Source: Escherichia phage S127 BCL3. From it: DNA of 64,000 nt. Position 1 is the first letter of the stretch. Each line of letters starts with the position of its first letter. Below, in pieces: positions 17,918-22,588 of this stretch. The position numbers and the translations under genes were made by a program. The notes under the pieces are model-generated. The model worked only from the letters and a program-made list of their open reading frames with translations. It was not told where the DNA came from and did no database searches. The stretch lies in the sequence record OQ626344; one strand, 5' to 3'.

Positions 17918-17962
17918 TTTACTTTATTGATGGCCCTGGAGTCAAGGCCATCTAAAAATAAA
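17918..17962 (-). repeat. 45-bp promoter-bearing repeat, copy 1 of 3 (perfect)
   Basis: TTTACTTTATTGATGGCCCTGGAGTCAAGGCCATCTAAAAATAAA. The minus strand reads TTGACT-18-TAAATT, with the -35 in the loop of the GATGGCC/GGCCATC dyad. Confidence 0.8.
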
Positions 17963-17964
17963 TT

Positions 17965-18165
17965 TTACAGGCCTACAATCTCTTTAATTCGTTTTACTGC
18001 TGCCTCAGCGCCTTGAGGGTAAAAATTATGGTAACCAATCACGCGGGTAATACTGATCGCCACTTGATGATCTTCATAATCGCCTTTGAAGATTTCTTGA
18101 CCGTCAATCAACACGGCAATTTTTTCTTCTTTTTTGAAGTTAATAACGCGGATATTGTTGCTCAT
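17965..18165 (-). CDS. hypothetical protein, 66 aa
   Basis: SD AAGGAGAAA. Confidence 0.7.
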   Translation of the reverse strand: MSNNIRVINFKKEEKIAVLIDGQEIFKGDYEDHQVAISITRVIGYHNFYPQGAEAAVKRIKEIVGL

Positions 18166-18261
18166 TTTGTTTCTCCTTTTGGAACTTTGTCTATGTGGTG
18201 AGGAGTGTCTCCCCGTTGATTGTTATTATCCATATTCTGGATCTGATTGCAACACCCAGGG

Positions 18262-18302
18262 AGAAAAAAATTAAAAAGTTAGGCCCCCAGGGATCGGGGG
18301 CC
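18262..18302 (-). terminator. rho-independent terminator
   Basis: Minus strand GGCCCCC-gatccct-GGGGGCC followed by a T-rich run. Confidence 0.75.
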
Positions 18303-18306
18303 GTTA

Positions 18307-18426
18307 TCAGTTACTTACAGCGATAAAATACATCCCTACGCCTAACAATATTTCAAGGGCGATGATCTCAAGCCATACCGTAACACGGCGCACCTTATCG
18401 GTGCGGGGCTTATCCTTGGGTGTCAT
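18307..18426 (-). CDS. single-TM micro-protein, 39 aa (MTPKDKPRTDKVRRVTVWLEIIALEILLGVGMYFIAVSN)
   Basis: Hand-translated; SD AGGAGGAAAGGGGGAG directly upstream. Confidence 0.5.
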   Translation of the reverse strand: MTPKDKPRTDKVRRVTVWLEIIALEILLGVGMYFIAVSN

Positions 18427-18446
18427 CGTCTCCCCCTTTCCTCCTG

Positions 18447-18668
18447 TTAGCAGTTACGTGGTTTGCAATGGTCCCCAGGAGTATTATCACCACGCACATT
18501 ACAAGAAAAATTATCTCTGTCGTTGTTCGATCCATTGTTATAAAATTCCTTAAGATCAGGCCTGAAAATAAAGCTTTCGTTATTGAATCCATCCCGCCAG
18601 GCGGCTGGCTTCAAATCTTCACTAAATGGATTAATTAACGTGGTATTATTTAAACGGCTGGCCCACAT
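18447..18668 (-). CDS. hypothetical protein, 73 aa
   Basis: Track ORF 18447..18686; ATG at 18668 has SD GAGAGGAA. Confidence 0.5.
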   Translation of the reverse strand: MWASRLNNTTLINPFSEDLKPAAWRDGFNNESFIFRPDLKEFYNNGSNNDRDNFSCNVRGDNTPGDHCKPRNC

Positions 18669-19017
18669 ATTTTCTATTCCTCTCAAATAAGCGATCCGCC
18701 TCAGTTAAACAAATCTCATGGGCGTGATCTCTGGTTTTAGCTTCATCGAAAACCTGTTGTGCAAGGCTGCAACGTAGGGAGACTGGAAGATCACTATAAT
18801 AGGCGTTGACAAACGTTTGAGCGTCGTACAGGTCTGAAAATACTTTACCCTTTCTATTATTCCCCTTGTCAACAATTGCAAGGATAACCAATACAATAGT
18901 TGCAACCACTCCCAGGAAGATAGATATAATAAACCATAAAAAGGCGGATCTACCCATCTTGCCAGCGATCCAGGCGTTAAACAAGGCAACTAATATAGCC
19001 AAAATAATAAATTCCAT
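18646..19017 (-). CDS. membrane protein, 123 aa
   Basis: Track ORF 18646..19155; ATG at 19017 has SD AAGAGG; two N-terminal hydrophobic helices. Confidence 0.65.
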   Translation of the reverse strand: MEFIILAILVALFNAWIAGKMGRSAFLWFIISIFLGVVATIVLVILAIVDKGNNRKGKVFSDLYDAQTFVNAYYSDLPVSLRCSLAQQVFDEAKTRDHAHEICLTEADRLFERNRKYVGQPFK

Positions 19018-19042
19018 TCTATGTACCTCTTTTACAGTTCTG

Positions 19043-19074
19043 ATTAACAATAAGGCGGCAAATATGCCGCCGCC
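19043..19074 (-). terminator. rho-independent terminator
   Basis: Minus strand GGCGGC-atattt-GCCGCC followed by TTATTGTT. Confidence 0.65.
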
Positions 19075-19084
19075 TGTTACCTGA

Positions 19085-19465
19085 TTAAAAATTATCGCCG
19101 TAAATCTTTCCGCTTTCTGCCCACACCACCACGCGGGGCATACTATCCCACACATCTTGTTTTAGATTGAGCGCGTGCAATTCTTCGGTGGTGCTCATAC
19201 CAGGCACGGGCTGATTGTATACTGCAAAACGACCACCTGCATAATCATAGGCCAGAGTTAAATCACACTGGATCATCTTTTTGATCATGGCGTTAAGCAT
19301 AGCGTTAGCCGCATATTGGTCACGTTTTAAAGGCAATTCTTTAATAAGTTTGCGATAGTTTTCGATATGGTCGCACACTGTTTCACGTGGAAGATCTTTC
19401 ATATCTTCACGGAATGTAACCAGGTTAAACATAACGGTGTCAATAGCCTTGGTGGTGTTTTTCAT
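19085..19465 (-). CDS. hypothetical protein, 126 aa
   Basis: Track ORF 19085..19501; ATG at 19465 has SD AAGAGGAAAA. Confidence 0.7.
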   Translation of the reverse strand: MKNTTKAIDTVMFNLVTFREDMKDLPRETVCDHIENYRKLIKELPLKRDQYAANAMLNAMIKKMIQCDLTLAYDYAGGRFAVYNQPVPGMSTTEELHALNLKQDVWDSMPRVVVWAESGKIYGDNF

Positions 19466-19519
19466 GATGTTTTCCTCTTTGTTTTGTGTGGGGCAAGTCA
19501 TCTCGCCCCCTTGATTTTT

Positions 19520-19547
19520 AATATAGCAGGTTTTTAGATTATTGCAA
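19520..19547 (-). promoter_or_regulatory. sigma70-type promoter
   Basis: Minus strand TTGCAA-16-TATATT; leader hairpin GGGGC...GCCCC. Confidence 0.5.
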
Positions 19548-19555
19548 CACTTTTC

Positions 19556-21013: not shown

Positions 21014-21021
21014 GTTGGTTG

Positions 21022-21219
21022 TTATCTGTCTTTATGGCGGTATCGTTCTGCCTGTCGTTCACGTTCCAAAAGTAGGCCAGGCAATTTACGATCATAATGA
21101 TTTCGCCAGATCTTTCCAAATCTTTTTGGCTTATTCAGTTTATTGTTACGCTGGCGGCGTTCCGGCAACTCTTCGGAATCATGAGGACGCTTTACAATTT
21201 TTTCGAAATTAATTTTCAT
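21022..21219 (-). CDS. small basic protein, 65 aa
   Basis: Track ORF 21022..21243; ATG at 21219 has SD AAGGGGGAAG; Arg/Lys-rich. Confidence 0.6.
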   Translation of the reverse strand: MKINFEKIVKRPHDSEELPERRQRNNKLNKPKRFGKIWRNHYDRKLPGLLLERERQAERYRHKDR

Positions 21220-21562
21220 AGCTTCCCCCTTTACTGATTTCAATATTTGCCTGAATCGCCCGGATACGGCGTTTTATAACCTCCTGATCCGTGCAATCAT
21301 ACCCCCAAAAGTCTACAATTTTTGCGCCTCCAGCTTTTAAGCGGTATAGTGTTTCTTGCATCTTGTAAGCTGGGATCGGTCGTGGTGTTACCTGGTCGCC
21401 TTTCTCATCCTTGTACTTGATAATATAATCTTCATTGTCGTTGAATACCCAAAATGGGTATTCTGTAAAGGCGTTGCTCTCTTTTTCGTTTTTGGATTGG
21501 ATCTTGTTTACAATTAAAGCCGTAGCAATAGCGCCAATGATAAAACTTGCACCGCTGATCAT
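21209..21562 (-). CDS. membrane-anchored protein, 117 aa
   Basis: Track ORF 21209..21580; ATG at 21562 has SD AAAGGAGAAAG; N-terminal TM GASFIIGAIATALIV. Confidence 0.7.
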   Translation of the reverse strand: MISGASFIIGAIATALIVNKIQSKNEKESNAFTEYPFWVFNDNEDYIIKYKDEKGDQVTPRPIPAYKMQETLYRLKAGGAKIVDFWGYDCTDQEVIKRRIRAIQANIEISKGGSYEN

Positions 21563-21637
21563 GTTACTTTCTCCTTTCATGGTGTTAATAAATTATCTTT
21601 ATAGATGGCCCTGCAGCCAGGACCACCGAAAAAATAA

Positions 21638-21883
21638 CTATTTCACAATGCCTACAAAACAGATCCCGCCTTCCCCGACGTAGGCAATATCGGTCACTTT
21701 GTAGTCGGTCAAGATCTGTTTATTCAGATCATTAATAAAATCGGTCATTGCGTTGGTGTAGTTGTCTTCCATGTCTAGGGAATAATCCCAGGTGTAAACC
21801 TTTTTACGTCCGAAGCCTTTTACCATGATCCGGGCGCTTTTGGTGTTGGTAGGGGCATAGTATTTGGTGATTAGTGCTGCCAT
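21638..21883 (-). CDS. hypothetical protein, 81 aa
   Basis: SD GAGGAG; driven by 45-bp repeat copy 2. Confidence 0.7.
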   Translation of the reverse strand: MAALITKYYAPTNTKSARIMVKGFGRKKVYTWDYSLDMEDNYTNAMTDFINDLNKQILTDYKVTDIAYVGEGGICFVGIVK

Positions 21884-21923
21884 GGTTTTAACTCCTCATT
21901 AGTTCAGTGTTAACAGTGTAAAG

Positions 21924-21968
21924 TTTACTTTATTGATGGCCCTGGAGTCAAGGCCATCTAAAAATAAA
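21924..21968 (-). repeat. 45-bp promoter-bearing repeat, copy 2 of 3 (perfect)
   Basis: Identical to 17918-17962; begins 2 nt after the stop of the upstream gene. Confidence 0.8.
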
Positions 21969-21969
21969 T

Positions 21970-22311
21970 TTACTCGTTTTCTTCCAGTTCTGCAAGCTCT
22001 TCTTTCACTTCTTCGAGCTCTGTCTGCAATTCCTGGTATTCTTCATCGTCCTCAATATCCAGGCTGTCGATGTAGTCGCTAAATCCGCAACGGTAAGCGA
22101 TAGGATCTAGCTCCTTGAGGATACGCGACGGAAGAAAAGAAATGTTTCCGATCATGATTTCGCCGTAGACCTCGTCTAACCATTCATCATAGTTTTCGTC
22201 GTACTTGTCCTCGTCGATTTCAAAGTTATCGATCTTGTTCTCAAGGTCCGCGATCTGTTTTTTCAGTGCGGCAACCTGAATAGCTTTTTCTGCGGCGGTC
22301 ATAGTGGTCAT
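21970..22311 (-). CDS. highly acidic coiled-coil-like protein, 113 aa
   Basis: SD AAGGAGAAAA; Asp/Glu-rich throughout. Confidence 0.75.
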   Translation of the reverse strand: MTTMTAAEKAIQVAALKKQIADLENKIDNFEIDEDKYDENYDEWLDEVYGEIMIGNISFLPSRILKELDPIAYRCGFSDYIDSLDIEDDEEYQELQTELEEVKEELAELEENE

Positions 22312-22334
22312 GGTGTTTTCTCCTTTTGTGTGTT

Positions 22335-22351
22335 CTGGGAAGTTTTCCCGT
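22335..22351 (-). repeat. conserved 5'UTR hairpin (GGGAA-nnn-TTCCC), copy 2
   Basis: Sits between the promoter (22363-22390) and the SD of gene 21970..22311. Confidence 0.6.
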
Positions 22352-22362
22352 TTACGTGTTTA

Positions 22363-22390
22363 AGTATACCGATTTAAGTTAGCTTGTCAA
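22363..22390 (-). promoter_or_regulatory. sigma70-type promoter
   Basis: Minus strand TTGACA-16-TATACT. Confidence 0.65.
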
Positions 22391-22510
22391 TTAAAAATTT
22401 AAGAAAAATTTTGCAAAACTGTTAGCGCTACTCATTAACATTTGCGCCAGGATGTAACCGACAACGCAAACGATAATAGTTACCTTTGTGTATTGGCGTG
22501 TAGTGCTCAT
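22391..22510 (-). CDS. single-TM micro-protein, 39 aa (MSTTRQYTKVTIIVCVVGYILAQMLMSSANSFAKFFLNF)
   Basis: Hand-translated; SD AAAAGGGG; it is the only ORF downstream of 45-bp repeat copy 3. Confidence 0.5.
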   Translation of the reverse strand: MSTTRQYTKVTIIVCVVGYILAQMLMSSANSFAKFFLNF

Positions 22511-22543
22511 CTTAAAGCCCCTTTTTCGCTTAACTGAGATTAG

Positions 22544-22588
22544 TTTACTTTATTGATGGCCCTGGAGTCAAGGCCATCTAAAAATAAA
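22544..22588 (-). repeat. 45-bp promoter-bearing repeat, copy 3 of 3 (perfect)
   Basis: Identical to 17918-17962. Confidence 0.8.

Follow-up and report, generated by a model that had tools for sequence, protein, structure and literature searches.

A conserved intercistronic RNA hairpin, probably also a recombination junction, in the early/accessory-gene region of rV5-like coliphages

Introduction

Why would a phage genome carry the same 45 base pairs, without a single difference, at three separate gene boundaries? This question is raised by Escherichia phage S127 BCL3 (sequence record OQ626344), of which we analyzed a stretch of 64,000 nt (hereafter, the window). An initial annotation of this stretch had read the repeat as a promoter combined with an operator dyad, and had taken the perfect identity of its copies to reflect either recent cassette shuffling or recombination at these sites, or strong selection for an operator shared by three transcription units. 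Here, we report that the repeat is primarily a conserved RNA hairpin and not primarily a promoter, a view that largely replaces the promoter/operator idea. Overall, we favor the explanation that the repeat is an intercistronic hairpin for mRNA processing or stability in the early/accessory-gene region, doubling as a recombination substrate, and we assign this combined explanation a probability of roughly 0.55.

The repeat is the core of one extended RNA hairpin

The 45-mer (TTTACTTTATTGATGGCCCTGGAGTCAAGGCCATCTAAAAATAAA) matches with zero mismatches at 17918, 21924, and 22544, exactly where it had been annotated (copies 1, 2, and 3; Table 1). No further match was found at up to three mismatches, and none was found in 100 dinucleotide-preserving shuffles. 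A search for further copies, as had been proposed together with the initial annotation, yielded under relaxed settings one diverged fourth copy that the annotation had overlooked (copy 4), which differs at 11 of the 45 positions and directly follows the stop codon of an 81-aa gene. Start codons, Shine-Dalgarno (SD) sequences, and open reading frames (ORFs) all place the genes around the repeats on the minus strand, and each of the four elements lies on this coding strand, 0-2 nt past a stop codon. The spacing had originally been given as 2 nt after the stop codon and about 30 nt before the next SD. The former distance is correct for copy 1, and amounts to 1 nt for copies 2 and 3; the SD begins ~20-30 nt downstream of the repeat, and the next ATG follows at 33-40 nt. 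The four copies are clustered within 4.7 kb, among small ORFs that match only PHROGs of unknown function.

In the sense (minus-strand) RNA, the entire 45-mer forms the core of one extended hairpin. A lower, AU-rich helix of 10 bp starts from the upstream stop codon or next to it, and is separated by a conserved, asymmetric internal loop of 2x3 nt (UA / AAU) from an upper, GC-rich helix of 10 bp (GAUGGCCUUG/CAGGGCCAUC), which contains one U.G pair and carries the tetraloop ACUC. The 7-bp dyad that had been described around the -35 hexamer does exist, but on the minus-strand RNA the stem is 10 bp long with a 4-nt loop, and the flanks pair as well. The 7-bp dyad with its 10-nt loop is thus the DNA view of a longer, strand-specific RNA helix. 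Copies 1-3 have a sense fold of -25 to -27 kcal/mol over ~90 nt, and none of 200 shuffles was as stable (z = -4.30, -4.94, and -4.39 for copies 1, 2, and 3, respectively, with z = -1.92 for the antisense strand of copy 2). For copy 4, z was -3.85 for the sense strand versus -0.40 for the antisense strand, and 1 out of 200 shuffles was as stable.

Covariation shows both the fold and its strand specificity. We aligned 23 distinct instances, taken from the window, eight GenBank relatives, and two IMG/VR contigs, and found standard pairs in 99.1% of the cells of the 20-pair structure, as compared to 36-58% when the partners were slid by 1-3 columns. Two-sided changes were observed for four pairs (8-54 GC/AU/GU, 9-53 UA/CG, 11-51 UA/AU/GU/GC, and 12-50 AU/UA). 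Four pairs of the upper stem show one-sided changes, always to or from G.U, and these are wobble-compatible on the sense strand only. Copy 4 and about ten relatives keep the fold through compensatory and G.U changes; across relatives, pair 11-51 of copy 4 is found as A-U, G.U, and G-C. Because the independent covariation events number about ten and not hundreds, this support is good, but not overwhelming.

A covariance model derived from these aligned instances scored copies 1 to 4 at 79.8, 82.9, 81.3, and 77.8 bits on the sense strand, and at 35-42 bits on the antisense strand (40.8 bits for copy 1). Beyond the four elements, it had no match in the 64-kb window or in the remaining 95 kb of Phage 203, so that the family consists of exactly four members, located within ~5 kb. 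A scan of positions 16000-25000 against Rfam returned only sub-threshold chance matches. We consider it very probable that this RNA hairpin is under selection.

Beyond each copy, a weaker likeness continues downstream for ~14 nt (63-nt family D1). Behind the three exact copies, this part contains a degenerate YNCWGTTAA on the minus strand (17904-17917, 21910-21923, and 22530-22543), which extends the repeat to 63 nt at 86-90% identity. This extension might mark where a putative transcript starts, or might form a third helix with the upstream coding sequence. On inspection of the sequence, we rejected an integron attC-like reading of the downstream GTTAA motif: GTTRRRY fits copy 3 only, and no inverse core was found.

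Each copy is constrained at its own position

The region is 93-96% identical to that of Vequintavirus (rV5-like) coliphages, such as Phage 203/206, rV5 derivatives, and FV3. A 50-nt motif query matched 120 phage records, all of them Vequintavirus except for one Justusliebigvirus, and mostly at three places each. The motif was absent from 5,426 complete Escherichia coli genomes, and is thus not host-derived. Across about ten relatives, the nucleotide diversity of the 45-mer is 0.012-0.030 for copies 1-3, compared to 0.05-0.10 for the coding sequence beside it and 0.09-0.12 for the stretch that separates it from the following gene; in other words, the repeats are 3-8 times less variable than their flanks. 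Ordinary divergence at these sites, which would have spoken against a special role, was looked for and not seen, and the strong constraint that had been suggested is borne out. Copy 4 has a diversity of 0.072-0.076, which is about the rate of the flanks, and its changes are compensatory.

Variants are mostly specific to one position and inherited there. A C at column 9 is found in copy 2 only, and a TCTAGGG variant is found in copy 1 only (in phiWec189 and A12a). This inheritance position by position implies that the three copies are identical because each of them is constrained, and not because of a recent duplication. Recent shuffling as the source of the identity is also contradicted by the occurrence of the repeat at the same three positions in ~120 genomes.

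The repeats are junctions of gene exchange

As had been proposed, we compared the gene content between copies in related phages. The segment 22541..21969 is missing in ime, magaca, ECP26, phiWec189, and ECP32, and in IMG/VR contig L009, which amounts to a 620-bp cassette indel in six sequences. The lost segment holds a 39-aa gene, the promoter at 22390, and a 113-aa gene. Genomes without the cassette contain a single hybrid repeat, which is flanked upstream as copy 3 is and downstream as copy 2 is. Exactly this structure results when homologous recombination joins the two direct copies; alternatively, it represents an unoccupied site into which a 620-bp circle can insert. At least two flank backgrounds (TTACTAAG and TTATTGAG) are found without the cassette, and both are found with it as well, indicating that the event is recurrent or was spread by recombination.

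The second case concerns KKE7M, a Justusliebigvirus that belongs to another subfamily, which has 22391..21924 in common with the window at 95.5% identity. This module comprises the promoter, the 5' untranslated region (5' UTR), the 113-aa gene, and the hairpin, and the homology stops at the last base of the 45-mer. At the same place, the KKE7M relative muut has an intact promoter (TTGACA-AGATAACTAAAATCAG-TAAACT), followed by atattcattaa and a 5'-UTR hairpin. Compared to muut, KKE7M carries the module inserted inside the resident promoter. Its left crossover lies in the spacer/-10, a part with homology to the promoter at 22390 of Vequintavirus, and its right crossover lies at AGTAAA(Y)T, where the 3' end of the element overlaps the resident -10. 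Both cases are resolved to the base pair: the gain or loss of a 620-bp cassette within the genus, and a transfer between subfamilies with its insertion point inside a promoter. They substantiate the cassette exchange or recombination that had been suspected at these sites, and we are highly confident that the repeat acts as a recombination junction.

Not all plasticity in this region is mediated by the repeats, given that rV5_ev146 (L008) has two deletions that are not repeat-bounded (23004..22498 and 21074..<16000, relative to the window). In ECP26, identity shifts from 97% to 86% across copy 4; the entire region is mosaic, and shifts at the hairpins are not clearly above this background.

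What the hairpin may do

A role in mRNA processing or stability is suggested by analogy with known systems, and we regard this part of the explanation as tentative, somewhat short of even odds. In the mechanism that we propose, the transcript would be cleaved by a host endoribonuclease, either by RNase III inside the interrupted helix of two turns or by RNase E in the A-rich segment at its 3' base. This would leave the hairpin as a 3' cap that shields the upstream cistron, and the fates of the neighboring cistrons would thereby be uncoupled. RNase III substrates span about two helical turns, and internal loops within them lead to single-strand cleavage, such that a protective 3' hairpin remains (PMC1540722). 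The 10 + 10 bp around the 2x3 internal loop likewise amount to about two helical turns of double-stranded RNA, the length required of an RNase III substrate. RNase E sites usually have a stem-loop upstream (PMC6202311). By its geometry, the element would appear to fit both enzymes. At its 3' base, the hairpin reads CCAGGGCCAUC-AAUAAAG (in one IMG/VR variant, AUCAAAUAAAAU), which loosely resembles CCAGGCAUC-AAAUAAAAC at the 3' end and trailer of E. coli 5S rRNA, where RNase E site b of 9S RNA is located. At 21924-21945, the minus strand reads CCAGGGCCATCAATAAAG, as compared to CCAGGCATCAAATAAAAC at the 3' end of E. coli rrf. This resemblance is short and AT-rich and may be due to chance, and we treat it as a lead, not as a test.

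Several points weigh against a processing hairpin. The upper helix is just 10 bp long. We found no Vequintavirus transcriptome or transcript ends in the literature, and the function of the RNA is inferred from its anatomy only. RNase E would need the AU-rich flanks to be single-stranded, whereas they are predicted to pair with each other. Moreover, four copies per genome, all within 5 kb, are few for a general processing signal. In phage Gotham, a 5-nt deletion in copy 3 (L001:5387-5431) removes GGGCC of the 3' arm, whereby both the hairpin and the hexamer spacing are lost; this means that the phage can do without copy 3, unless the deletion is a sequencing error at a hairpin. Finally, copies 1-3 are conserved in sequence, including the loops and the internal loop, far above the level of copy 4. 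Pure structure does not explain this, and it suggests that the sequence itself is under a further constraint, for example from a promoter or a protein partner.

The promoter is the alternative put forward by the initial annotation, in which each copy starts a unit from a sigma-70 promoter (TTGACT-18-TAAAYT), the T-run serves as an UP element, and the dyad around the -35 binds a regulator. The hexamers are indeed present on the minus strand of all three exact copies (TTGACT-18-TAAA(C/T)T; 9/12, including A-11 and T-7), a genuine-looking promoter at 23070 likewise has TAAACT as its -10, and PhagePromoter predictions fall on two of the three copies in phage Gotham. In addition, a recurrent loop variant changes TTGACT to the consensus TTGACA (in HdK5, magaca, rV5_ev146, and L010), the TAAATT of the element replaces the resident -10 in KKE7M, exactly 11 nt upstream of the resident 5'-UTR hairpin, and copies 1-3 are more sequence-constrained than copy 4, as dual constraints predict. 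However, the match is weak and has an 18-nt spacer, compared to the phage's own early promoters (TTGACA-16/17, 10-12/12, with a 5'-UTR hairpin), and the elements lie inside units that are already provided with promoters. The hexamers fall on positions that the fold explains, with TTG at the top of the stem, ACT in the loop, and TAAA in the lower stem. Within the '-10', it is the fifth base that varies; this base corresponds to column 54 and covaries with column 8. Whereas the three exact copies have a -35 and -10 at a distance within the usual 16-18 nt, this arrangement is not kept in copy 4, which has CTGGCT instead of TTGACT, nor in copy 3 of the IMG/VR contig L010, in which the loop and the 3' internal loop are each longer by one base, so that the hexamer spacer reaches 20 nt while the hairpin stays intact (with its U.G pair changed to U-A). 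The Seuratvirus counterparts described below do not keep it either: two out of three are without a -35-like hexamer, and in the third, which is located upstream of gp69, the loop contains TTGATC but no usable -10 is present. Of the 33 promoters and 20 terminators given in the rV5 genome paper, none falls on the repeat sites, and the paper does not mention the repeats (PMC3606486). A promoter/operator shared by three units is thus not upheld as the primary role, as the copies sit inside operons with much stronger promoters and it is the fold that is conserved, not the hexamers. We consider a functional promoter possible, though on the doubtful side. It could coexist with the RNA hairpin as a composite cassette of the promoter-early stem-loop (PeSL) kind, and a weak sigma-70 promoter may be embedded in the three identical copies as an added function.

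The remaining explanations keep the hairpin but change its role, or deny it one. As a transcription attenuator or terminator, it would stop or limit read-through between cistrons, as demonstrated for PeSL stem-loops, which terminate efficiently in reporter assays (PMC2839356), and a stable GC-rich hairpin immediately behind a stop codon would suit this role. However, on both strands the polarity of the flanks is reversed relative to an intrinsic terminator, with a U-run upstream and an A-rich stretch downstream. The hairpin is followed by AAUAAAGUAAA and no U-tract, and is therefore not a canonical terminator; the elements are also unlisted in a consensus terminator scan. Our custom scan of GC-rich hairpins in the window found that the four elements alone have reversed polarity, next to ten terminator-like hairpins (including two antisense readings of 5'-UTR hairpins and two that represent one bidirectional site), and all canonical terminators in the window have the polarity opposite to that of the repeats. 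Predicted terminators in phage HdK5 do not coincide with the repeats, and termination would silence the downstream 39-aa, 81-aa, 123-aa, and 101-aa genes, which have no strong promoter of their own. Termination thus strikes us as quite unlikely. The element might instead be a sequence-specific binding site for a phage or host protein, on RNA or on same-strand single-stranded DNA, with translational regulation, antitermination, or recombination as possible roles. Such a site would agree with the conservation of copies 1-3, loops included, beyond the needs of the fold, and with the recurrence of the same 10+10-nt upper stem and U.G pair in covarying early-operon leader hairpins of Pseudomonas-group prophages (see below). 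Yet no protein is common to the prophage loci and the window, the prophage stems vary, with an exact identity in about half only that may be due to chance, copy 4 and the Seuratvirus hairpins differ in both stems and loops, and the 'anti-termination protein' of Phage 203 is without Pfam support. A protein site is therefore unlikely in our judgment. Lastly, recent duplication or gene conversion might have left identical copies as a functionless by-product, as the perfect identity within one genome and a T>A loop variant common to neighboring copies in HdK5 might be taken to indicate. This is extremely improbable, considering that the copies hold the same three positions in ~120 genomes, are 3-8 times less diverse than their flanks, inherit most variants position by position, and show compensatory evolution in the diverged copy.

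Relation to known systems

The closest described system is the PeSL cassette of the T4-like phages RB49, phi1, PST, and nt-1 (Arbiol et al. 2010, PMC2839356; Comeau et al. 2014, PMC4122927), and the rV5 element is a variant of it. Both are conserved intergenic repeats in regions rich in small non-essential ORFs, in which an upstream stop codon in an AT-rich stretch is followed by a stable stem-loop, sigma-70-like hexamers, and finally the SD and ATG of the gene behind it. In one PeSL subclass that has been described, the stem-loop overlaps the -35, and PeSLs likewise bound indels between close relatives that leave one chimeric repeat. The rV5 element differs in its lineage (Vequintavirinae and not T4-like phages), in its number (four copies per genome versus dozens in PeSL phages), and in its promoter (9/12 with an 18-nt spacer versus consensus strength in PeSLs). 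Furthermore, the flank polarity of its stem-loop is reversed, with the U-run upstream, and is not terminator-like, and the whole repeat is one extended hairpin backed by covariation.

The early RNase III signals of phage T7 (R1.1 and relatives; Pertzev & Nicholson 2006, PMC1540722) are also intercistronic hairpins of early polycistronic phage mRNA, with about two turns, a small asymmetric internal loop, several related copies per genome, and no U-tract. Cleavage by RNase III at these signals leaves a protective 3' hairpin (PMC1540722). In contrast to T7, the upper helix of our element is just 10 bp. The RNase E sites of 9S RNA that flank 5S rRNA similarly combine a stable helix with AU-rich segments on either side, although the AU-rich flanks of our element are predicted to pair mutually. 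Work by Newbury and colleagues in 1987 is said to have recognized REP elements as intercistronic stabilizer hairpins in E. coli operons. Like our element, these are repeated imperfect palindromes between cistrons, and they act as barriers to 3' exonucleases and can serve as recombination substrates. The two are unrelated in sequence, and unlike REP our element is phage-borne, tied to stop codons, and absent from the 5,426 E. coli genomes.

Repeat-mediated modular shuffling, so far described for PeSLs in T4-like phages, is hereby extended to rV5-like phages, which are widely used in therapy and biocontrol collections. Moreover, a conserved RNA structure as the first property of the element recasts 'regulatory cassettes' as possible post-transcriptional insulators. 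For phage engineering, the repeats represent predictable deletion sites and natural landing pads for gene insertion.

Similar hairpins in Seuratvirus and in Pseudomonas prophages

The 81-aa gene has homologs with 43-45% identity in Seuratvirus siphophages. In CAjan, sense-strand hairpins of the same anatomy lie on both sides of this homolog, and a third lies at another junction; hairpins of this kind are also found in the Seuratvirus phages CSP1, slur01, KS_A8, and SLUR26 (Table 1). Their anatomy comprises a stop codon, GUUU.UUUAUA, a 10-bp helix with G.U pairs, a 5-nt loop, AAUAAGC(A/U)AACUAAU, and the SD. The z-scores of these hairpins range from -4.3 to -5.5, and their upper stems show no sequence relationship to that of rV5. 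Between CAjan and CSP1, we observed two double compensatory changes and three wobble switches, with invariant flanks. At this wider level, the conserved part is the helix together with its AU-rich flanks. We found nothing in the literature on the Seuratvirus hairpins.

Besides Vequintavirus, the exact upper stem was found in IMG/VR and GTDB in a hairpin family of Pseudomonas, Halopseudomonas, and Ectopseudomonas prophages (ATTTCCTC-GATG[G/A/C]CCTTG-GNRA-CAGGG[C/T/G]CATC-CGGGAAA). These hairpins lie downstream of a CI-like repressor, in early-operon leaders, with ~15 nt between them and the SD of the first gene. The family covaries, such that GATGGCC, GATGACC, or GATGCCC occurs with the matching 3' arm, and has the same U.G pair (flank-anchored). 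Its upper stem is identical to that of the rV5 element in about half of the prophage hairpins; the chance level of this GC-rich 20-mer in coding DNA is not negligible. Judging from these sequences, the identity may reflect convergence on a common partner, or it may be due to chance. An Rfam scan of five prophage loci gave no relevant match, and the prophage hairpin may be an undescribed RNA motif. Matches with a 5-nt loop in bacterial genomes were rejected as coding-sequence noise.

It is conceivable, although we think it rather unlikely, that all of these hairpins belong to one undescribed class of phage intercistronic RNA modules with terminator-reversed polarity, which travel with small accessory genes between unrelated lineages. 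Such a module would consist of a stop codon, a U-run, a ~10-bp GC helix, and an A-rich AAUAA(A)G..AACU tail, and would occur in Vequintavirus, Justusliebigvirus, Seuratvirus, and possibly the Pseudomonas prophages with the same upper stem. If this were true, a conserved host RNA-processing factor would read the modules, and a transferred gene would bring along its own post-transcriptional insulator and recombination handle.

Genomic context of the elements

The features around the elements are listed in Table 1. Copy 3 lies in a unit that runs from the promoter at 23070 through the 134-aa gene and the copy itself to the 39-aa gene. Copies 2 and 4 lie in a unit that runs from the promoter at 22390 through the 113-aa gene, copy 2, the 81-aa gene, copy 4, and the 123-aa gene to the terminator at 21013. 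Copy 1 lies between the 66-aa and 101-aa genes of a third unit. The true start of the 123-aa ORF is probably the ATG at 21562. We considered whether the genes flanking the repeats are paralogues and rejected this, as all belong to different PHROGs of unknown function.

Table 1. Positions of the hairpin elements and of the features discussed in the text (window coordinates unless a locus is named).
Feature	Position	Strand	Description
Copy 1	17910..17970	-	Between 66-aa and 101-aa genes; exact core 17918-17962
Copy 2	21916..21976	-	Between 113-aa and 81-aa genes; exact core 21924-21968
Copy 3	22536..22596	-	Between 134-aa and 39-aa genes; exact core 22544-22588
Copy 4	21585..21645	-	Between 81-aa and 123-aa genes; core 21593-21637; same architecture, loop GCUG, CTGGCT for TTGACT
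Cassette between copies 3 and 2	21969..22543	-	Together with one repeat, the 620-bp indel unit
101-aa gene	17575..17880	-	phrog_7366; downstream of copy 1
66-aa gene	17965..18165	-	phrog_12347; upstream of copy 1
Canonical intrinsic terminator	20994..21013	-	GC stem, then TTTTTATTT; ends the unit with copies 2 and 4; flank polarity opposite to the repeats
123-aa ORF	21209..21580	-	phrog_12734; downstream of copy 4
81-aa gene	21638..21883	-	phrog_3199 / VOG5306; copies 2 and 4 on either side
113-aa ORF	21970-22311	-	Within the cassette
5'-UTR hairpin	~22332-22356	-	Within the cassette
Strong promoter	22363-22390	-	TTGACA-16-TATACT; within the cassette
39-aa ORF	22391-22510	-	Within the cassette
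134-aa gene	22590..22994	-	phrog_13245, function unknown; stop ends 1 nt before copy 3
Consensus-type promoter	23043..23070	-	TTGACA-16-TAAACT; unit holding the 134-aa gene and copy 3
Seuratvirus hairpins	L184:2412-2475 (+), L184:2734-2795 (+), L184:1494-1555 (-)		Also in L188-L191
Prophage hairpin loci	L020-L044, L045, L055, L058, L064, L065, L067, L072, L073, L085		For example, L026:3401-3452

The strong same-strand promoters of the region follow the pattern TTGACA-16/17-TAnnnT (10-12/12), and each is followed after ~10 nt by a GC-rich 5'-UTR hairpin. In the minus-strand transcripts, these hairpins make up a second repeat family (20208-20226, 23014-23032, 22332-22356, and 15378-15402) with the sequence GGCGGGAA-N3/4-TTCCCGCC and relatives of it. 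This early-promoter hairpin is likely a 5'-terminal stabilizer of the mRNA. The design of a promoter with a hairpin, and a homologous promoter, are also found in the Justusliebigvirus phages muut and KKE7M.

Among the relatives, seventeen GenBank records (MG0656xx) that are labeled 'Campylobacter phage' are Vequintavirus genomes, and both of those that we inspected (L017 and L018) are marked UNVERIFIED. The MG0656xx records A147, A12a, and C15 start or end beside a repeat, which suggests assembly breaks at the repeats, as well as doubtful host labels. The motif has four 'places' in A12a and in A147, which could be read as a reciprocal duplication; in A12a, this proved to be an artefact of the record's start point.

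At 50893-51942 (+), the window encodes an ortholog of Phage 203 gene 11, which is annotated as an 'anti-termination protein' and has no Pfam match. This label looks unsupported, and we rejected the protein as a partner of the hairpin for the same reason. Finally, positions ~24190-24650 are rich in repeats, with 47-55-nt units every 65-74 nt and 20-nt units at 24192, 24328, and 24357. This stretch matches a ~1-kb gap without coding sequences in annotated relatives, and could be an origin or a regulatory region.

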